A program made the translations under genes and the position numbers. A DNA stretch of 64,000 nucleotides, from the NCBI RefSeq assembly GCF_054482525.1, contig NZ_CM137006.1; one strand, given 5' to 3'. Shown here one piece after another: positions 21,201 through 33,048 of this stretch. The notes under the pieces are model-generated. The model did not search any database, was not told the origin of the DNA, and saw only the letters and a list, made by a program, of their open reading frames with translations. Numbering within the stretch: the stretch's first letter is position 1; each line of letters opens with the position of its first letter.

Positions 21201-21337
21201 CGTGTAATGGCTGCATGAAATAAACAATAAAATATAAATAACATTATCAGCCTGCCGACGGCTTGAAGAGAGTCACAGTATCTTGTGCAACATTATTGGA
21301 AAGCGTGAGGGGCGAGGTAGCGAAGCGGAAAAATGTT

Positions 21338-21407
21338 AAAAAAAAGCCCATCGTGGGAGATGGGCAAAGACTACACACAGCAATTCGTTGTTTCACTCAG
21401 GGGATTT
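21338..21407. repeat. Left attachment-site direct repeat (duplicate of the rprA 3' end and terminator, 70 bp)
   Basis: Identical to 32979-33048: aaaaaaaagcccatcgtgggagatgggcaaagactacacacagcaattcgttgtttcactcaggggattt. Confidence 0.9.
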
Positions 21408-21424
21408 AAGTCATTGATTGATTT

Positions 21425-22054
21425 ATGGGTATGCGGTTTTTCGGCATAAACCAAATTAAGCAAGGCTTGAAAATGGACACACAAATTGCACACATATCGC
21501 ACACAAATAAAAAGGGGTATGTATGGCGCAAGCGTTATGAAAAACGCACGATTGAAATCATCCTACGCACCCGTGATAAATCAATTGCCATAAAAAGAGC
21601 GGCATCAATAACAATTCGCTATATGGAATTAAAATCACTTGACGTTCCATTTAAAGCAATGCTGGAAATGTTAAAAAAGTTTCGTGATGGTCTGATTACG
21701 TCACATGACATTGAGCGCTTAAGGTCGATTGCGATAGCTTCACAGGAAGCTCCACACGCCGCTGTAACCGCTTCGCCTATACAAAGTGTTGGCTATGATG
21801 TCAAAACCGCTCAGAAAGCCGCACAGGGGCATTCCCTTGGCGATGCTCAAAAAGTGTACTTTGGCGCCAACACCGAATGGAAAGAAAAAACCATCAAGGC
21901 TTATTCTGGTTGTATCGACCGCTTTATTTTATGGTGCGCTAATAAAAATATTCATACCGTGGAAGAAATAACGAAAGAGCATGTGATTTCATTTAAATCC
22001 AGCATGGATGAAGAAAAATTAGCCTCCATGACTAAATTTCGCATAATAATATGA
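21425..22054 (+). pseudogene. Tyrosine-integrase-like N-terminal fragment (core-binding/SAM-like region only, catalytic domain missing)
   Basis: 209-aa ORF; the segment KTIKAYSGCIDRFILWCANKNIHTVEEITKEHVISF resembles an integrase core-binding domain; no R..HxxR..Y catalytic region follows; sits next to the att repeat. Confidence 0.4.
21477..21509. repeat. Three tandem ~11-bp repeats (acacacaaatt / gcacacatatc / gcacacaaata), candidate integrase arm-type sites, left end
   Basis: Direct tandem repeats ~70 bp inside the left att repeat; a matching triplet lies ~70 bp inside the right repeat. Confidence 0.5.
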
Positions 22055-22362
22055 TTCGGGTTAGCATAACCAATACTTTTATTAAAGCCTATGTATGCAC
22101 CAATTTCTTTATACTTTAACTTAGTGAAATCTGAAATAATACTCAGTGGCTGCAATACGTTATGTCCATTGTGCGCCCCTTCATTAGCGCAAAATCCTGT
22201 ATTTGCAAACTGACCTTTATCACGCCAGATGAATCTATCAACGCCGCCACATACAGGACATGGTGTATGTTCATTTGGTTTAATATCAATTCCAAAATCA
22301 TTCATATGCACCAATGGATTCTTTTTAATATAATTATTCAAATCAGTAAAGAAATTAGCCAT
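21952..22362 (-). pseudogene. DNA primase zinc-ribbon domain fragment (Toprim and downstream domains absent)
   Basis: Motif HTPCPVCGGVDRFIWRD typical of primase Zn-ribbons; ORF stops soon after; its 3' end overlaps the convergent integrase fragment. Confidence 0.45.
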
Positions 22363-24400: not shown

Positions 24401-24750
24401 GTAGGGTATCTCTTAGATGTATTCTGAGTGCGGTCATGGTAGGCGAGGGGAGGAATAGCGGCAAGCATTACCGGATATAGTAAGCACTACCAGCTAAAGT
24501 CTAACTAACTGTCAACAGATTGAGGCTAAAACCACTGTATGTAAATTCAATTTTAAAAATTAAAAATCATTCTGGCTTAACTAATTATGCTCAATTTAAA
24601 TTGAATCTGATAATAAAAAGAATCAATAAAATGGATTTAGTGATTTTTAGTTGGACGAAATCGTTCATTTTATGTGCATTGCTCGCTGGTGATAATTCAA
24701 CCAATCCATTCAACCTATTCGAATGGGTGGTGAATTTTTGACCGAATTAA

Positions 24751-24920
24751 ATTCACCTGAATATTCACCGAATGATTCACCTGAATCATTCAGCCCTTCA
24801 TTCACCACGAAACCCAGGCGCGGCGGGGCTTACAGGCCGATTCATTCACCTGAATATTCACCTGAATATTCACCTGAATTATTCAACCAAAAATTCACCT
24901 TCATATTCACTCATTCACCT
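24751..24920. repeat. Iteron array: two clusters of three 12-bp tandem repeats (ATTCACCTGAAT) plus degenerate copies
   Basis: Units at 24751, 24763, 24775 and at 24844, 24856, 24868 with further TTCACC copies; lies upstream of the Rep ATPase operon. Confidence 0.6.
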
Positions 24921-24957: not shown

Positions 24958-25236
24958 TGATGAATGAAGGTCGTTCAAGTGAATGAACTGTGAGTTGGGT
25001 AAACCCCTAGGGGTTGGGGGTGTTGTCGATTTGTGGTAAATTCCTTCTGCCAGCGTGAAAAAGGCGCTGGTGGGGATTTGCAGCCCCAAACAAACAAAAC
25101 CATTGGCAAGGAATTGCCGATGCGCGTGCGCACGTCAGTTATGGCGGTCACGGCGAGGGAGTCGAAAGGCTCGCCAGTTTTGTTTGTTTGCTGGTACTGC
25201 AAACCTCGTCGTGATCGTCACCACGGGGATGCATGT

Positions 25237-25488
25237 ATGCAGGAAACAGACTGGCACAAAGCGGATATTCTTGCCTCTTTAAAGAAAAAGAAAATCAGCA
25301 TGGCGGGATTATCCCGTGAACATGGTTTATCAAGTAGCACGTTGCTAAATGCACTTAGTAGAGAATGGCCTAGAGGCGAATTAATTATTGCTAATGCAAT
25401 TGGTGTGTCACCTCAAGAAATATGGCCTTCTAGGTATTTTGAAAAAGATGGCTCTCCAAAAAATCGTGTGATTCGTAAACCTGTTTAA
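25237..25488 (+). CDS. Ner/Nlp (SfsB)-family HTH DNA-binding regulator, ~83 aa
   Basis: MQETDWHKADILASLKKKKISMAGLSREHGLSSSTLLNALSREWPRGELIIANAIGVSPQEIWPSRY closely resembles Ner/Nlp; I prefer the internal ATG at 25237 over the 151-aa ORF start. Confidence 0.6.
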   Translation: MQETDWHKADILASLKKKKISMAGLSREHGLSSSTLLNALSREWPRGELIIANAIGVSPQEIWPSRYFEKDGSPKNRVIRKPV

Positions 25489-25705: not shown

Positions 25706-25751
25706 CCTTTTCTTTGCTTCACCAGCCCCGTAGGGGCGTGAGCGTAGCGAA
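25706..25751. repeat. 46-bp direct repeat, copy 1 (ccttttctttgcttcaccagccccgtaggggcgtgagcgtagcgaa)
   Basis: Identical to 29912-29957; contains a gcccc-gta-ggggc hairpin; ~100 bp upstream of the 383-aa gene. Confidence 0.85.
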
Positions 25752-25849
25752 CCTAATCACTTTGATTTTGACACATATCGGTTCTATCATTTTCAGGAAA
25801 ATCATCATAGAATTATATAAAACATACGATTTTTAAGGTGAATTTTTAA

Positions 25850-27001
25850 ATGCACGAGAAAGCGCAAACAAAAATAAAAGATACTATTAGAGAAATACTA
25901 ATCACTCCAGCAATCGCTTTTACTGGTCGTGCAGGTCATTTTGATTTTTCATTATATGAAGTTTTAGCAAATGAGCTTAACAAAAGAAAGATAAAGTTTA
26001 AAATTGATAAATTATCATGTTGGATTATTTTTGATGGCGCAAAAAAACATTACTTTCAAGATAAATCAATTACTGACGCACAAGCGATAAATGATTTTGT
26101 GGATACGTTATGTAGTATTTACTGTGAAACACCTATGGATTACTCCATCGATTTTCACTTTAGAAATTTAAAAATCGATATCAACCCGATTGATTATGAG
26201 TTTGTTTCAATTAGAGCGGGTGAGGATATTGGTATTGGTTTGTTCGCTGAAAAAGAAAAGTATGCGATTGCGAGCATTAAAAAGAATGGCTATCTTTCAG
26301 GTGGTTATCCTAGCTCATTTATAAAATCGATTTTGCAAGATTTGAAAATCTTCATTTTTTTGATTAAAAGCATTAATTTGATTAAGACAGGAAAAACCAA
26401 TTTAGCATCCACGTTATTTCAATCGATGTCCGGTCATGCTGACACAATTAAGATTGATTGCGTTAATGTTAAATATCCTTGGATGAATAGCAGTGTCCAT
26501 ATTTCAGAGTCGGTAGGGAAATTTTTACACAACTTTATCTTCAATTATGAATTTGAAGAAGGCTACATTATAGAAAAAATAGATCATTCGCTTCAGCTAA
26601 TGAATGCAATAGTAAAAGATGAGTCAAAAGAAGCCTTGCGTATCAAGGCTGCAATTGATTGGTTGGTGCAATCTGAAATCACTGATGATGAAACCATGTC
26701 TTTTATTCAAATTTGCATGGGGCTTGAATCAATTTTTGGTGATGATGATTATGAGGGTGGCCTAACAAACATACTATCTGATAGATGCGCCTACTTAATA
26801 GGGAATAAAATTAAAGAGAGGAGATTTATAAAGGACACATTTAAAAAAATATATCAAGTTAGGTCAAAGATAGTGCATGGCGTAAGAAATCATTTATCAG
26901 ATGATGAATTATATTTTAGGCATTTAGCATATTCATATTTAGAGCGTTCTATTCTAAAAGAAATTCAAAATTTAGACCTGCAATCCCATCAGGCGACGTG
27001 A
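25850..27001 (+). CDS. Hypothetical protein with C-terminal HEPN-like R-x4-H-G motif, 383 aa
   Basis: AGGTGA RBS 8 nt upstream; C-terminal ...KKIYQVRSKIVHGVRNH matches the R-x4-6-H signature of HEPN RNases; strongly AT-rich. Confidence 0.4.
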   Translation: MHEKAQTKIKDTIREILITPAIAFTGRAGHFDFSLYEVLANELNKRKIKFKIDKLSCWIIFDGAKKHYFQDKSITDAQAINDFVDTLCSIYCETPMDYSIDFHFRNLKIDINPIDYEFVSIRAGEDIGIGLFAEKEKYAIASIKKNGYLSGGYPSSFIKSILQDLKIFIFLIKSINLIKTGKTNLASTLFQSMSGHADTIKIDCVNVKYPWMNSSVHISESVGKFLHNFIFNYEFEEGYIIEKIDHSLQLMNAIVKDESKEALRIKAAIDWLVQSEITDDETMSFIQICMGLESIFGDDDYEGGLTNILSDRCAYLIGNKIKERRFIKDTFKKIYQVRSKIVHGVRNHLSDDELYFRHLAYSYLERSILKEIQNLDLQSHQAT

Positions 27002-27236
27002 AGCTTGTGCGCTTCATTATGGGGCTAGCCGCCATCAGGCAAGGCGATTGCATGTCTTTGCGCTTCGTCGCCTCCTGATGCGTTCTGTGAAGATGTCGAT
27101 CATTTAGTGAGCGCGGCGGATGTTGCTGATGGATAGTGTGGATGCAACTGAACCATACCGCGAAAAGTGGCAGGATTGCGCCGGAATCGTACCGCTAGCA
27201 GGTGTTGAGTGTAAGAAGTAGTGATTGGGTGAAATG

Positions 27237-27275
27237 AAGATAGAAGGCCGCATAGAGGCATACAACTAGCCTTAT
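27237..27275 (-). terminator. Hairpin downstream of the lipoprotein gene (candidate terminator)
   Basis: ccgcata...tatgcgg stem followed, on the minus strand, by a T-rich tract. Confidence 0.35.
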
Positions 27276-27288
27276 GCGGTTGGCTGGT

Positions 27289-27732
27289 TCAGCACTGGTA
27301 AAAGTTGGCGAGGTGTGGAATATGGCTGGTGGTGGTTTCGAAAGCCTTGAGGCGTCCATTTTTATCTTTTTTCAAGTAGAGCATTTTTAGTGCTGGTGGA
27401 AATACTGAATCCATAATTCCATAAACTCCCACATTTTCGTTTTCTTCTTTAAGCATTCCCCAATATTGATAACCATTTAATGCGCTATCATCAATGCCCG
27501 TTCCAACGCGCTTAATGTGGGCAAGATATCGGCCTTTTATCGTAAAGCTAAATGATTCATCACGTTCATTTGTGCAAGTGTAAAATCCATCATCGCTTTC
27601 ATTTATAACTTCAGATGCTTCACGATTTAATGAGTACTTGTCTAAGTTGTTTATGATGTCACTTCGCTGTGCGCATCCAGTCAAATTTAGAATGGTAAAA
27701 ATTAGTACAGAAGATGCAAGATATTTGTTCAT
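27289..27732 (-). CDS. Predicted lipoprotein, ~147 aa
   Basis: N-terminus MNKYLASSVLIFTILNLTGC carries a signal peptide with lipobox LTGC; internal ATG at 27732 preferred. Confidence 0.55.
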   Translation of the reverse strand: MNKYLASSVLIFTILNLTGCAQRSDIINNLDKYSLNREASEVINESDDGFYTCTNERDESFSFTIKGRYLAHIKRVGTGIDDSALNGYQYWGMLKEENENVGVYGIMDSVFPPALKMLYLKKDKNGRLKAFETTTSHIPHLANFYQC

Positions 27733-27818
27733 TTTGATTATCCATATGAAAAGCAAGGTACTTAGATTAAATTACCCTGCTTAAGCAGTAATTAGCGGTT
27801 CCGTTAATAGAGGGTAGA

Positions 27819-28178
27819 TTATTTGTTAATTTGTTTTTTAGTGTGTGAGATAAAATTTCTAAGTAAATCTTTTTCAATTACAATTTCACATTTTAGGTTT
27901 TGGCTATCGACCGCATCAATTCTATCAAACCAAAACATTAATTCCTGGCTTGCATCGCATTTACGTTTGAATTTAATTGCCCTGCCGAATTTTTCACTTA
28001 AAGAATCATCATCACATAAAAAATAAATTTTATTATTAATGGTGATTTGAATTAAATATGTCTTCCTCGTTAGGTAATCTAACCTTTCGTTAGCTTTCAG
28101 TAAGTTAGCTTCAGCTTGTTTGATGCGTATAAGAGCATCCTCTTTGCTTAAAGGGGATGTATTGACAGACTTGATCAT
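27819..28178 (-). CDS. Hypothetical protein, 119 aa, upstream partner of the lipoprotein
   Basis: AAGGA RBS 8 nt upstream of the ATG; co-oriented with the lipoprotein gene, 86-bp gap. Confidence 0.5.
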   Translation of the reverse strand: MIKSVNTSPLSKEDALIRIKQAEANLLKANERLDYLTRKTYLIQITINNKIYFLCDDDSLSEKFGRAIKFKRKCDASQELMFWFDRIDAVDSQNLKCEIVIEKDLLRNFISHTKKQINK

Positions 28179-28287
28179 AATTTAATCCTTTGGTTAAGAT
28201 TCATCAAAAATATGCCATAAATAGCCTTGAAGGTTGTGTGGAATACATATTATGATAGCTTCATCTAATCAGCAAGGGGAATAATAG

Positions 28288-28443
28288 ATGCCTTCTAAAC
28301 GTGTTATATGCTCACTTGATGAGCAAGAGTTAGATATTCTCGAAAAATATAAATTACATTATAAAAATATGCATGGCGTAAAATTAAACAGAACGGCAAT
28401 TATCAAAATGTTGATTAGTCGTCTATCAAAAGAAATTCAATAA
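28288..28443 (+). CDS. Ribbon-helix-helix (Arc/CopG-like) small DNA-binding protein, 51 aa
   Basis: MPSKRVICSLDEQELDILEKYKLHYKNMHGVKLNRTAIIKMLISRLSKEIQ shows a beta-strand/helix/helix pattern; GGGGA RBS; divergent from the 27819-28178 operon; below ORF-track length cutoff. Confidence 0.45.
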   Translation: MPSKRVICSLDEQELDILEKYKLHYKNMHGVKLNRTAIIKMLISRLSKEIQ

Positions 28444-28495: not shown

Positions 28496-28810
28496 ATGCA
28501 CACTCTTTTTTCTAAATTTAAAAACAGGAAAATTAAAATGTATCAACCACGTTATAAAAGCAGAATGATTGACGATAATGAATATAATCAGGTGCTTCAA
28601 TCGAGAATGCAAAATCTTTTAAATCAATATAATAATGAGGTTTCAAACTTAACCCGCATTGGTGTTACAAATTTGGGTTTCGGCCGATGGGATAATGGAG
28701 AGAGCAAAATCAATAACCACGTTAATAAAGTAAGTGAGACTTTGGAAAAGATGCAATCTACGCAAGCCTTGATTGATGCTCTTGCAAATGAAATTACACA
28801 AACTAATTAA
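28496..28810 (+). CDS. Hypothetical protein, 104 aa
   Basis: AAGAGG RBS 8 nt upstream; no recognisable motif. Confidence 0.45.
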   Translation: MHTLFSKFKNRKIKMYQPRYKSRMIDDNEYNQVLQSRMQNLLNQYNNEVSNLTRIGVTNLGFGRWDNGESKINNHVNKVSETLEKMQSTQALIDALANEITQTN

Positions 28811-28894
28811 TCGAATGGGGGATGCTTTAAATGGTAATCGCAATCATGGTTGTAATGTTTTGGGCTTTCCTGATTCTTAAAGAGGAAATGAAAT

Positions 28895-29179
28895 ATGGTT
28901 AAATTTGGAGTGTTTTACCATCATGCATGGGGTGATGGTAAAAAGGAAATCCCGCCACCTGATTTAAATTACATCCGAACCGATCCACATAAAAATAATG
29001 AAATTGCTTTAGATGTTTTTGATTCAAGAATGGACGCACAAAAACGCGCTGATTTACTAAATTCACGCATGGCAAAAAATCAAACTGGTCAGCATTATGT
29101 TGCGCCAACAACGCAAGAAACCAAAACGGCTCAAAAGCGCTTTAAGTTTCCTTGTACTAGCATTTATGGGTGGAAATGA
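28895..29179 (+). CDS. Hypothetical protein, 94 aa (paralog family A)
   Basis: AGAGGA RBS; N-terminus MVKFGVFYHHAWGDG is similar to the next gene's N-terminus. Confidence 0.45.
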   Translation: MVKFGVFYHHAWGDGKKEIPPPDLNYIRTDPHKNNEIALDVFDSRMDAQKRADLLNSRMAKNQTGQHYVAPTTQETKTAQKRFKFPCTSIYGWK

Positions 29180-29181
29180 AA

Positions 29182-29556
29182 ATGAGTAAACAATTCGGTG
29201 TTTTCTTTTGGCGAAAAGGTGACGCTATTACCGATATCCCGTCAGATAAAAATGTTGCAAATCGCGGAGTAAAGCCTAAGCGCATTTTTTCAGATTATAT
29301 TGATGGAATGCGATATAAAGATAAAATGAATGCAACAATTCCAGCGGCGCAAAAAGGTAAATATGAATATGTATTAGCGGAAATTGTTGAACCAGACCCG
29401 AACAATACAAAGGTGTTGTTTAAATCTGGAAATTTAACAGAAGCATTAAGGGCGAAGCGACAAACAACCGAACAAATCAACCGAAATAAAATTGATGCAA
29501 TGATTAAAGAAGCCGCACACGATTACCTTTACACTATTACAGGAATGGAAAAATGA
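29182..29556 (+). CDS. Hypothetical protein, ~124 aa (paralog family A)
   Basis: N-terminus MSKQFGVFFWRKGDA parallels the upstream gene; GGTGGA RBS; start at 29182 preferred over 29170. Confidence 0.45.
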   Translation: MSKQFGVFFWRKGDAITDIPSDKNVANRGVKPKRIFSDYIDGMRYKDKMNATIPAAQKGKYEYVLAEIVEPDPNNTKVLFKSGNLTEALRAKRQTTEQINRNKIDAMIKEAAHDYLYTITGMEK

Positions 29557-29852
29557 TTATTGACGAGCGATTTATTAAATGGTCAATGGTGCTGGTGGAG
29601 GCCGGAAAGCCATCACCCAGCCTCGCGGGGCTTTATAAAGGAAACACTAAAGGATTAATCTTTTATAAAACACGTGAATTGGCATCAAATGCAGCCACTA
29701 AACGGAATGAGCAATTAGCAGGAACTAAATCAACCAGCCGATTTAAAATCATTAAATTGCATGACGCAGAAGCACAACAGAAACATGATTTTCAGTTAAA
29801 ACAGGAACGCCAGCGCCGCGATGCACGCCATATGCGCCGATTTGGTTTCTAA
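29553..29852 (+). CDS. Hypothetical basic protein, 99 aa
   Basis: 4-bp ATGA overlap with the upstream gene suggests translational coupling; Lys/Arg-rich C-terminus. Confidence 0.4.
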   Translation: MIIDERFIKWSMVLVEAGKPSPSLAGLYKGNTKGLIFYKTRELASNAATKRNEQLAGTKSTSRFKIIKLHDAEAQQKHDFQLKQERQRRDARHMRRFGF

Positions 29853-29911: not shown

Positions 29912-29957
29912 CCTTTTCTTTGCTTCACCAGCCCCGTAGGGGCGTGAGCGTAGCGAA
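29912..29957. repeat. 46-bp direct repeat, copy 2
   Basis: Identical to 25706-25751; 37 bp upstream of the tape-measure-like gene. Confidence 0.85.
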
Positions 29958-29993
29958 ATAAGTAACATTAATATCAAATCAGAGGTAAATAAA

Positions 29994-31982
29994 ATGGCAG
30001 GTGAAAATGCTCAATTGGGCTTTTCCGTCGATACATCGGAAGTGGAAACAGCATCAAAAAGGCTTAATGAATTAGCTAAATCAGCGCAAGGGGCGGCTGA
30101 TTCGGCTGGCAAATTATCAGATTCATTTGAGGAAAGTATGAAGGGTGTTAATTCATCAATTACTTCCAATCATCAGGCTATGCGCGAATTAACGGTAATG
30201 ATGCACGAAGCAATGTCTGGTAATTGGTCGCGCTTGCGTGGTTCTGCAATGATTATGGGCGGCGCATTGGGATTTGGTGGATTAACTAGCGGTGCGGTAG
30301 TTGGTGGAATTACGCTTGTTTCGGAAGGCATTGAATCGCTAATTGAAGGAATGCGAGAAGCTCAAAAAGCAGAAACTGAATTAAATAATTCTGCTGTAAT
30401 TACAGCAGATGTAAGCCTTTTAAATAGTGATTATGTTGATTCACTTACTATTGGTTATGAGAAATTAGGCTATTCAGCAACACAAGCAAAAGGCATGATT
30501 GCAGCGTTAAGTAATGCGGGTATGTTTGGTGATGAATTTAGTGTTGCAGGTAAACAAATTGCCGCACTATCTAAAGCGTTAGGCGGTAATTCAGACGAAC
30601 AAAAAAAATTAGCTGGTCAATTTGGTGGCTTGTATTCTGACCCGCTAGGACACGTTAACGAATTTTTCCAAGTAACAAACGGATGGATTACCAAAACCGA
30701 ACAAAACCGAATTAATGCGGCTGAACAATCGCATAATTCAGCACAAGCTGAAATGGCTATGCAAGAAGCGCTATTAGATGTTTATAAGCGTCAAACCGAT
30801 ATGCTACAGCTTAAAGCCTATTTGGAAACTAACGCCGCTACATATTCAGCCTTTCAGACGCGCGAACAATTCGGCAGCGCATGGGGTAAGGGCGAAAAAG
30901 AAAAGGCAGACGCATTTATCAAGCAATATGACGAGCGCCAGCAATCATTTAATCAGGGCGTTGAAAAGCTAAAAGGAAGCATTCACGAAACAGGACGCCA
31001 GATAAGGGAAAATGTAGAAGAATTTAATAAAGGAATGCATCCCCATAAAGTGCATACACACCACGGATTAACAGCAATTGAGAAAGCAGCTAAACAATTG
31101 GTGACCTACCAAACCCAAATTAAACAGGCTGGTTTGCAATTTGACCAGCAAATTAATTCAATTGGTGATTCAGTAAATAATGCGTGGAGTAATAAATTAT
31201 ACTCTTATTCAATGTCTTCTGACCAGAATGATTTTGCAAACCGAATTGAACAAATCAATGAACAATTCGACCGTATGCGCGAAAATGTAGACCGTTTGGC
31301 GCTGCAACATCATAAATCAATTGGTTCAAAAGAATATGTTGAAATGTTCCAAAAAATCGAATTAGGGCGCAAAAACGTATTGGCTGAAAACGTTGCTGGA
31401 TTTAATGAAATGGAGTCATTGCAGCATTCAGCGCTGGCGGGAATGGATGAGGGATGGATTAAATACCAGAAGCAGGTTAATGATGTTGCAAGCCAATCAG
31501 AGAAAGTTTTTGATACGGCTGTTGAGGGAATGACAAATTCATTAACTGATTTCTTTACAACTGGTGAGGCTGGTTGGACTAATTTTGTAAAATCAATCGC
31601 AACAATCACTGAAAAATACATGGTTCAAGATTGGATTGTTGAGCCGCTAGCAGGATTAGTAAAAGGGGGGATTAGCTCGCTATTTTCATCAAATCCATTG
31701 AGTTCAACGGCTAACACTTTTGCCGTTCCCGATATTCCAAAATTGGGCGCAACTCATTTAGGAGGCGGTCTAGGTTCGACCGCACCAGTTATCAATATCA
31801 CCATTAATGACAATGGCAACAAAGGCGGCGTTGATAGCAATGTTAGCGGCACAACAGGGCAAGTACAAAAAATGGGGGCGGCGCTAGATAAATTCCTGCA
31901 AAACTATATCAAAGAGCAAAACGTAAAATCCAACCGTCAGGGCGGGTTAAACAAAACAATGGGGAACTGGTCGACAAGATAA
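29994..31982 (+). CDS. Phage tail tape-measure protein homolog (lambda gpH-like), 662 aa, orphan
   Basis: Glycine-rich hydrophobic segment MIMGGALGFGGLTSGAVVGGITLV near the N-terminus, long helical middle, C-terminal FDTAVEGMTNSLTDFFTTGEAGWTNFVKSI and ...VINITINDNG matching, from memory, the lambda H C-terminal region; AGAGGT RBS. Confidence 0.6.
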   Translation: MAGENAQLGFSVDTSEVETASKRLNELAKSAQGAADSAGKLSDSFEESMKGVNSSITSNHQAMRELTVMMHEAMSGNWSRLRGSAMIMGGALGFGGLTSGAVVGGITLVSEGIESLIEGMREAQKAETELNNSAVITADVSLLNSDYVDSLTIGYEKLGYSATQAKGMIAALSNAGMFGDEFSVAGKQIAALSKALGGNSDEQKKLAGQFGGLYSDPLGHVNEFFQVTNGWITKTEQNRINAAEQSHNSAQAEMAMQEALLDVYKRQTDMLQLKAYLETNAATYSAFQTREQFGSAWGKGEKEKADAFIKQYDERQQSFNQGVEKLKGSIHETGRQIRENVEEFNKGMHPHKVHTHHGLTAIEKAAKQLVTYQTQIKQAGLQFDQQINSIGDSVNNAWSNKLYSYSMSSDQNDFANRIEQINEQFDRMRENVDRLALQHHKSIGSKEYVEMFQKIELGRKNVLAENVAGFNEMESLQHSALAGMDEGWIKYQKQVNDVASQSEKVFDTAVEGMTNSLTDFFTTGEAGWTNFVKSIATITEKYMVQDWIVEPLAGLVKGGISSLFSSNPLSSTANTFAVPDIPKLGATHLGGGLGSTAPVINITINDNGNKGGVDSNVSGTTGQVQKMGAALDKFLQNYIKEQNVKSNRQGGLNKTMGNWSTR

Positions 31983-32909: not shown

Positions 32910-32978
32910 ATCGCATACCTTTAATGACCTAATTTCTTCAAGCCCCTGCATTGCTGCGTTTGTCGTGATTTTCGGCAT

Positions 32979-33048
32979 AAAAAAAAGCCCATCGTGGGAG
33001 ATGGGCAAAGACTACACACAGCAATTCGTTGTTTCACTCAGGGGATTT
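32979..33048. repeat. Right attachment-site direct repeat (3' 70 nt of intact rprA)
   Basis: Identical to 21338-21407. Confidence 0.9.

Follow-up and report, generated by a model that had tools for sequence, protein, structure and literature searches.

What is achieved, within a mobile element, by a small basic protein that faces a conserved cytoplasmic protein and an exchangeable lipoprotein across a single control region? The question is raised by nucleotides 27289–28443 of a 64,000-nucleotide stretch (the window) of an Escherichia coli chromosome (contig NZ_CM137006.1 of assembly GCF_054482525.1), where three such genes form a divergent unit, here called the node. It is most likely a mobile-element moron or exclusion cassette standing beside a switch, built from orphan proteins, in an apparently undescribed family of elements. 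Tentatively, and as a leading reading rather than a probable one, we regard it as a bidirectional node resembling a phage immunity region, in which the exchangeable outer-membrane lipoprotein would, as its likeliest task, exclude incoming phage.

The three open reading frames (ORFs) are real, intact genes under purifying selection. They specify a lipoprotein (27289–27732, minus strand; 147 amino acids from its ATG), a basic cytoplasmic protein of 119 residues (27819–28178, minus strand), conserved as the signature core gene of the element family, and a basic protein of 51 residues (28288–28443, plus strand), a putative ribbon-helix-helix (RHH)-type regulator whose gene is the first of a rightward operon. 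In E. coli SCU-102, whose sequence here is identical, PGAP annotates these three genes and chooses the same ATG for the lipoprotein; an upstream TTG would yield 155 residues. The genes are AT-rich (28–38% GC), and long ORFs are therefore unlikely to have arisen by chance. Against their counterparts in E. coli FREC5 and S10 the ratio of nonsynonymous to synonymous substitution (dN/dS) is 0.18 for the lipoprotein gene, 0.10–0.12 for the 119-residue gene and 0.19–0.31 for the 51-residue gene; between the window and S10 the amino acid identities are 38%, 87% and 53%, respectively. The recurrent arrangement (small basic ORF, promoter-like spacer of about 109 bp, 119-residue gene, lipobox gene) retains its order and orientation in all 14 loci examined, from six or more genera, the contexts having been obtained by exact-protein look-ups, with one extra locus each from scans of genome contigs and of IMG/VR. 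In every one of them an ORF of 51–71 residues, of the same family, diverges from the 119-residue gene across 107–135 nt, mostly 109. The three divergent ORFs that a sequence-only reading of the window had placed here are thus borne out by ORF calls, annotation, selection and conservation alike.

The position following the 119-residue gene is a slot for lipoproteins. It is occupied by a lipobox protein in 14 of 14 loci (15 of 15 occupants, counting one tandem pair), and the occupants fall into four families unrelated by BLASTP, designated A (10, that of the window included), B (3), C (1) and D (1). None of the 14 with a canonical lipobox has Asp at position +2; the occupant in locus L017 has an atypical L-N-G-C lipobox followed by Ala. 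Two or four further Cys residues are present in the mature parts, which together with the absence of Asp at +2 fits a predicted outer-membrane, periplasmic location. Both flanks of the slot, an 86-nt leader on the 5' side, kept even where the lipoprotein family differs, and a non-coding block of about 260 nt on the 3' side, are conserved across families; replacement therefore occurs precisely at the ORF. In loci L004 and L010 the 119-residue proteins are 84% identical and the products of a tape-measure-like gene to the right of the node are 94% identical; the slot holds family C in the former and families D plus A in the latter. A coupling of lipoprotein type to tape-measure-like type was rejected on this pair, and swapping at the slot is independent of the rest of the element. 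The slot of L010 (3604–4531), a metagenomic relative, carries a tandem pair, a 132-residue family D protein and then one of family A, which indicates that the cargo position can accumulate lipoproteins besides replacing them.

Since the 119-residue gene is constant and the lipoprotein families vary, the former is a core gene and the latter exchangeable cargo. Homologues of the 119-residue protein, all annotated as hypothetical, form 55 clusters from Escherichia, Salmonella, Citrobacter, Enterobacter, Kluyvera and Hafnia, with 30 invariant columns in their alignment; on these comparisons it is the most conserved, element-specific gene. No fold relative of the protein was found, and 2 kb of node-region DNA had no match in phage genomes. 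As a strongly conserved orphan lacking a fold relative, it may be a new type of regulator. One conserved protein combined with four unrelated lipoprotein families is not a co-evolving pair; a specific interaction of the 119-residue protein with the lipoprotein is unlikely on this pattern, and the earlier idea of the two as interacting partners is left unsupported.

The lipoprotein of the window (family A) begins with MNKYLASSVLIFTILNLTG followed by CAQ, in which a rule-based reading recognises a basic n-region, a 16-residue hydrophobic core, an L-T-G-C lipobox and Ala at +2; its signal region, MNK-YLASSVLIFTILN-LTG-C20, agrees with the lipobox pattern [LVI][ASTVI][GAS]C. The lipobox Cys is present in all full-length members of the family alignment, and the protein is very probably exported and lipidated; the clear LTGC lipobox noted at the outset stands. 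By the E. coli Lol sorting rule, Ala rather than Asp at +2 points to an outer-membrane lipoprotein. Cys53 and Cys147 are likewise invariant or nearly so, suggesting a periplasmic disulfide. The AlphaFold2 model made from 14 sequences (pLDDT 81, pTM 0.76) consists of a signal helix and an all-beta domain, the latter modelled as an 8-stranded antiparallel beta-barrel akin to periplasmic inhibitor proteins. Likeness was found to Salmonella PliC (score 7.0; 77/85 residues), the ZinT-like domain of AdcA (6.8), Brucella PliC (6.0), PhiA (5.9), a type VI secretion system (T6SS) immunity protein (5.6), Neisseria ACP (5.2) and E. coli MliC/YdhA (5.1), and also to streptavidins, lipocalins and potempin; as modelled, the fold is a generic binder or inhibitor scaffold. 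Pfam gave nothing at E ≤ 10 for this protein or 14 relatives, and the MliC/PliC motifs are not visible in the family A alignment; the protein is not filed in the MliC/PliC family. A word search returned only 7 close relatives, and a profile search of 1.84 billion cluster representatives only 13 matches, all from the same orphan family. Searches of PHROGs and phage genomes revealed no homology to the characterised exclusion lipoproteins Cor, Llp and Ltp.

The divergent control region (28179–28287, 109 bp) contains back-to-back promoter-like sites and candidate operator repeats. On the plus strand a promoter-like element, TTGAAG-18-TATGAT, lies at 28227–28256; it is formed by the blocks CTTG(AAG) and ATATTATGAT, both conserved in an alignment of nine loci. 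The same alignment shows an invariant AAATAT block corresponding to a minus-strand -10 hexamer (TATATT/CATATT; 28209–28214), which lies 30 nt upstream of the start of the 119-residue gene. The spacers are of two types, one having TTCATCA-type (TCATCAA-type) repeats around the minus-strand -10 and the other having TAGGTG twice, 11 bp apart. These repeats are offered as candidate operator half-sites only. Two types also exist of the small protein (KRVICSL versus NCKNKVAVYL), differing in the would-be DNA-reading strand, and in the 14 loci they match the two spacer types, a co-variation which fits operator specificity.

The 51-residue protein is basic (pI 9.5), and its pattern KRVICSL / DEQELDILEKYKLHYKNMH-G-VKLNRTAIIKMLISRL, which can also be written KRVICSL...HG-x-x-LNRTAIIKML, resembles the strand-helix-G-helix of RHH proteins by eye only, when compared for alternating strand residues, a Gly turn and G-x-[ST]-x-x-[ST/R] at the start of helix B. 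Pfam produced no RHH match for it or any of 8 relatives, a PDB profile search retrieved no RHH chain at E ≤ 10, and hhalign against a seed alignment of 10 RHH domains (verified, since it retrieves Arc, Mnt, CopG, ParG, RelB, omega, ParD, DinJ, NikR and FitA) gave a probability of 0.7% and E = 0.08, the weak alignment being in the same register as the pattern seen by eye. A wider homologue search led only to orphans from the same element. The original RHH-like call is therefore a matter of sequence pattern and drew no support from Pfam, PDB profiles or hhalign.

Between the two leftward genes lies the conserved 86-nt leader (27733–27818, minus strand), a possible attenuator. It contains a hairpin at 27751–27782 followed by UUUUCAU, and compensatory changes are seen at 4 pairs of the consensus hairpin; folded as a single sequence it is unexceptional (z = -1.2). 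The hairpin may attenuate read-through. With a conserved leader and its own hairpin between them, the two-gene operon proposed earlier for the leftward strand is not established.

Relatives of one of the other slot families occur in phages. Family B, which fills the slot in the Salmonella and Enterobacter copies, matches phrog_2320 (E = 1e-20 to 1e-23), and its homologues are lipobox proteins of the three siphophages ES18, KpF5 and Medea1, always inserted in the tail-gene cluster. ES18 gp20 (L014 9001–9456), annotated as a 'possible moron', and the KpF5 homologue (L019 2983–3354) are each encoded directly upstream of the tape-measure gene; insertion of a phrog_2320-type lipoprotein upstream of the tape measure is thereby seen in two unrelated siphophages. 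The Medea1 homologue (L020 696–3393) is located between tail genes K and I, behind a module of helix-turn-helix (HTH), Arc-family and Rha-antirepressor genes. The association of lipoprotein, immunity module and tail genes is thus a recurrent one.

The node is part of an AT-rich island of about 11.7 kb between ydiL and ydiK, inserted at rprA. Each end of the island carries one copy of an exact direct repeat of 71 nt (21337–21407 and 32978–33048), an att core that duplicates the 3' end of the small RNA gene rprA. The 2-kb node region is 100% identical in E. coli SCU-102, PCN033 and 19KM1776, and was found in only 5 of 5426 complete E. coli genomes. In the intact relatives FREC5 and S10 the left part of the element specifies a tyrosine integrase, a GIY-YIG nuclease, a Toprim primase, a small ORF and a DUF3987/AAA helicase; the middle part contains a gap with iterons, a Ner-like HTH protein, a HEPN protein and then the three-gene node; and the right part has three or four small ORFs, a Tape_meas_lam_C protein of 660–740 residues and a variable end gene (e.g. 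PIN_12). The copy in the window has fragments at 21473–22362 and has lost the C-terminus of the integrase (only the N-terminal domain is left), the GIY-YIG nuclease and most of the primase, and is thus a decayed one.

At 25137–25225 on the plus strand, just upstream of the Ner-like HTH gene (25237–25488), Rfam recognises a C4 antisense RNA (RF01695; E = 3e-11, 65.8 bits where the gathering score is 45). Its loop, GUUUUGUUUGUUUG, is exactly complementary to 25087–25100, 77 nt upstream, which is the RNA-immunity layout of P1/P7 immI and the P4 CI RNA. That site is the sole match of the C4 loop; targeting of the node, or of a pair of 61-nt repeats described below, was rejected for want of complementarity. 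Because of its gene content and the C4 RNA the element looks like a phage satellite, and the family to which it belongs, distributed in the Enterobacterales, combines integrase, nuclease, primase, helicase, C4 RNA, HTH gene, variable HEPN/PIN slots and a tape-measure-like gene. The sequence-only reading was accordingly right in supposing the node to be prophage- or satellite-borne. A scan of 14 island proteins gave no match to Sid, Psu, Delta or capsid PHROGs, the family was not found described in the literature searched, and among the comparisons made the element appears to match no described satellite family (P4-like, PICI, cfPICI, PLE).

How the node might work can be sketched as follows. 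The 51-residue protein, placed like Arc or Cro, would be made from the first gene of a rightward operon that continues with four small proteins and the tape-measure-like gene; it probably binds the 109-bp spacer and sets the balance between the two directions of transcription. Leftward transcription would first yield the 119-residue protein, which most likely regulates or maintains the element, and then cross the hairpin leader to reach the lipoprotein gene, which would place both genes under common regulation. The lipoprotein, predicted to be a disulfide-bonded 8-stranded beta-barrel, most likely binds and blocks a periplasmic or outer-membrane target, its most probable job being to keep incoming phage out, either at the receptor or at the step of DNA entry in the periplasm.

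Such a layout has parallels in characterised systems. In phage P22 the immI region is arranged as sieA-orf59a-mnt facing arc-ant, next to the tailspike gene. The adjacency of sieA and mnt is documented (PMC10883804). There too a small regulator heads an operon facing a leftward maintenance gene, with an envelope exclusion gene alongside and tail genes nearby; the two regions differ, however, in having no sequence relationship, in that the 119-residue protein is not Mnt-like and the RHH fold is unconfirmed in the node, in the envelope protein, which is an outer-membrane lipoprotein in the node and an inner-membrane protein in P22, and in that no antirepressor was identified in the node. Cor of phages phi80, N15 and HK022 is a small outer-membrane lipoprotein moron which blocks FhuA. 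The Llp protein of T5, an exclusion factor blocking the same receptor, is a small, disulfide-bonded outer-membrane lipoprotein (PMC9586334). Like these coliphage morons the lipoprotein of the window is small and directed to the outer membrane, and like Llp it probably contains a disulfide, but it is about twice as large and has no sequence match in PHROGs or phage genomes. Ltp of Streptococcus phage TP-J34 is a superinfection-exclusion lipoprotein encoded in the lysogeny module which blocks DNA entry by siphophages (PMC3952083); its target is the tape measure protein (PMC3952083; Bebeacua 2013 as cited in PMC10883804). Here the likeness lies in a lipoprotein gene placed beside the regulatory switch of its element, Ltp being expressed from the integrated element, and the difference in the Gram-positive host, the surface exposure and helical repeat fold of Ltp, and the absence of homology to the node lipoprotein. 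ES18 gp20 and the other phrog_2320 proteins, which have a lipobox and lie beside tape-measure genes, are true homologues of the family B slot proteins, but not of the family A lipoprotein. The C4-family RNA with its complementary upstream site, beside a small HTH gene, is shared with P1/P7 immI and the P4 CI RNA, although in the island it lies 3 kb from the node, to which no complementarity was found, and P4's sid, psu and delta were not detected among the island proteins scanned.

The idea that the node is an exclusion or defence cassette, voiced already in the sequence-only reading, draws circumstantial support from a fast-swapping slot that holds only lipoproteins, from the moron homologues of family B and from the inhibitor-like fold, and on the other side matches no known family. 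The HEPN and PIN genes in the adjoining slots of the island were counted in its favour. Tail clusters and immunity regions are home to exclusion genes that have been characterised (T5 llp, TP-J34 ltp, P22 sieA). An antiviral role is often found for genes of unknown function that lie in satellite hotspots (preprint 10.64898/2026.02.27.708500).

Several results weigh against this interpretation, which goes beyond what is established for the node (its genes, their divergent anatomy and conservation pattern, the lipobox, the slot swapping and the class of fold). Whether a single sequence or an alignment of relatives served as the query, Pfam, PHROGs, NCBIfam, PADLOC and PDB yielded no exclusion, defence or regulator family for any of the three proteins; PADLOC-DB 2.0 gave no match for the node proteins, their neighbours or the alternative lipoproteins. 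The RHH fold of the putative regulator is unconfirmed, the structure model of the 119-residue protein has no recognisable DNA-binding fold, and the co-variation of small protein and spacer may be plain linkage. The minus-strand -35 of the window is poor and the leftward promoter weak, and co-transcription of the two leftward genes, though plausible, is inferred. Neither the 119-residue protein nor the family A lipoprotein had a tblastn match in 50,697 phage genomes. Lastly, the copy in the window is probably immobile, and its present function may be nil or purely host-directed.

An elaboration that we consider doubtful would place the node in an undescribed enterobacterial satellite family with C4-type immunity and its own tape-measure-like gene, the slot supplying modular periplasmic exclusion, in which unrelated outer-membrane lipoproteins, exchanged between the conserved leader and the 3' non-coding block, would bar different siphophages, the 119-residue protein acting as a novel regulator or cytoplasmic partner and the 51-residue protein as its switch. 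Four rival explanations are less well supported than the immunity-region-like node. Unlikely, in our estimation, is a moron for host fitness or virulence, comparable to Bor of lambda, Iss or TraT, conferring serum or stress resistance or adhesion, with no role towards phage, the 119- and 51-residue genes being mere regulators of the element; no similarity to Bor, Iss or TraT was found in any library searched, the rarity of the node among complete E. coli genomes speaks against such a benefit, and the only occupant with phage homologues sits in tail clusters near tape-measure genes, the usual site of exclusion genes. To the same degree improbable is a service to the life cycle of the element, in which the 119-residue protein and the lipoprotein would sense or interfere with a helper, time lysis or release particles, lipoprotein families differing because helpers differ. 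The invariance of the node within the family, 1.5 kb upstream of the tape-measure-like gene, would agree with this, as would the weak N-terminal matches of the Hafnia occupant to Rz-like spanin PHROGs (E = 1.5e-3 and 7.2e-3). These spanin matches, however, cover the signal peptide only, with no inner-membrane spanin partner and no C-terminal transmembrane segment; the lipoprotein type does not track the tape-measure-like type, as L004 and L010 demonstrate; and a core function is rarely met by four unrelated folds.

Less credible again is inhibition of a muralytic enzyme or another hydrolase in the periplasm, in the manner of MliC/PliC, which would shield the cell wall from, for example, host lysozyme, T6SS amidases or the tail-associated lysins of phages. 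The 8-stranded antiparallel beta-barrel of the model is the likeness on which this rests, but the lipoprotein of the window has neither a family profile match nor visible lysozyme-contacting motifs. Least probable is a toxin-antitoxin or abortive-infection module with the 51-residue protein as RHH antitoxin, a role suggested for it earlier, for although the small size, basic character and RHH-like pattern of the protein would suit such a role, as would the HEPN and PIN genes that neighbour the node in the island family, the 51-residue gene heads a long operon divergent from, not co-transcribed with, the 119-residue gene, the 90-residue ORF beginning 95 nt downstream matches no toxin family, 51 residues are too few for a C-terminal neutralising tail, PADLOC was negative and the RHH fold lacks confirmation.

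Should the lipoprotein slot indeed be an exclusion hotspot, it would represent a compact natural library in which at least four unrelated outer-membrane lipoproteins share one conserved promoter and leader, each presumably blocking a different route of phage entry in the Enterobacterales, and would aid the mapping of phage receptors and periplasmic entry steps and the prediction of phage-therapy failures. If not, the node adds a further set to the orphan genes of mobile elements. Of greater note than the window's particular three genes are the architecture of the slot and the host element itself, apparently a satellite-like family without a name, which brings together RNA immunity, a single tape-measure-like gene and slots for HEPN and PIN genes.

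Downstream of the lipoprotein stop codon a hairpin (27248–27279, minus strand; dG -16.7 kcal/mol, z = -3.0) is present. Relatives keep an equivalent hairpin with compensatory changes on both sides of the stem. It has no U-tract and is not flagged by a terminator scan, so that of the hairpin terminator described earlier the hairpin stands, as a conserved structure, and the canonical intrinsic terminator does not. Together with this terminal hairpin a conserved non-coding block, 27023–27247, extends from the stop of the HEPN gene to the lipoprotein gene (27023–27290, about 260 nt). It is GC-richer, and blastn and alignment show its conservation in loci with a family A or B lipoprotein; blastn also matched it in the Salmonella locus L005, where no HEPN gene was called. 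Among its features are a long hairpin at about 27035–27085, with AGGAGG in the minus-strand stem, which is kept in six loci, and the motifs TTGCGCCGGAA and TGATTGG. An antisense ORF of 34 residues within the block was discarded, since it is not conserved. There was no Rfam match, and the block could be an RNA of no known family or a cis site.

Rightward of the 51-residue gene, ORF and PGAP calls agree on four small ORFs (90, 94, 124 and 99 residues; 28538–29852, plus strand) with dN/dS of 0.07–0.5 and no family matches in the library searches. The 94-residue (28895–29179) and 124-residue (29182–29556) proteins share an N-terminal (K/Q)FGVF and 26% identity over 69 residues (E = 0.01), and similar YGVF starts occur in small ORFs of the relatives; the two may belong to a paralogous family of small effectors. 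The four small ORFs are followed by the tape-measure-like gene (29994–31982, plus strand), the 662-residue product of which contains Tape_meas_lam_C and matches PHROG tape-measure families. It is the only structural-type gene in the island of about 12 kb, and its product measures 660–740 residues in all relatives. The resemblance to real phage tape measures, those of Klebsiella phages, is confined to about 90 residues at about 32% identity, and the protein could be a decoy or alter tail length. To our knowledge no described satellite family carries a tape-measure-like gene.

The HEPN-annotated protein (383 residues; 25850–27001, plus strand; in relatives, L003 16139–17284 and L007 7317–8462) occupies a second variable slot. 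It possesses an R-x4-H motif (YQVRSKIVHG) and is 72% identical to its counterpart in FREC5 and 43% to that in S10; in Hafnia the slot holds a 98-residue remnant. A third slot, at the right end of the island, contains a PIN_12 protein or an unrelated 205-residue protein. PADLOC returned nothing past E = 0.1 for the HEPN protein and nothing past 0.01 for the 205-residue and S10 PIN-slot proteins.

Repeats of other kinds are also present in the island. Iterons of the ATTCACCTGAAT type, some direct and some inverted, are clustered at 24750–24911 between the helicase operon and the C4/HTH genes, and this cluster is probably the replication origin of the element. The 61-nt direct repeat (25706–25766 and 29912–29972; 89% identical), which has no complementarity to the C4 RNA, includes the hairpin GCCCC-GTA-GGGGC; it stands 84 nt upstream of the HEPN gene and again 22 nt upstream of the tape-measure-like gene, and ORF translations suggest that in the copies of the element from Salmonella and Phytobacter it also precedes the latter gene. 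It may serve as a common regulatory site or one of the antitermination type.

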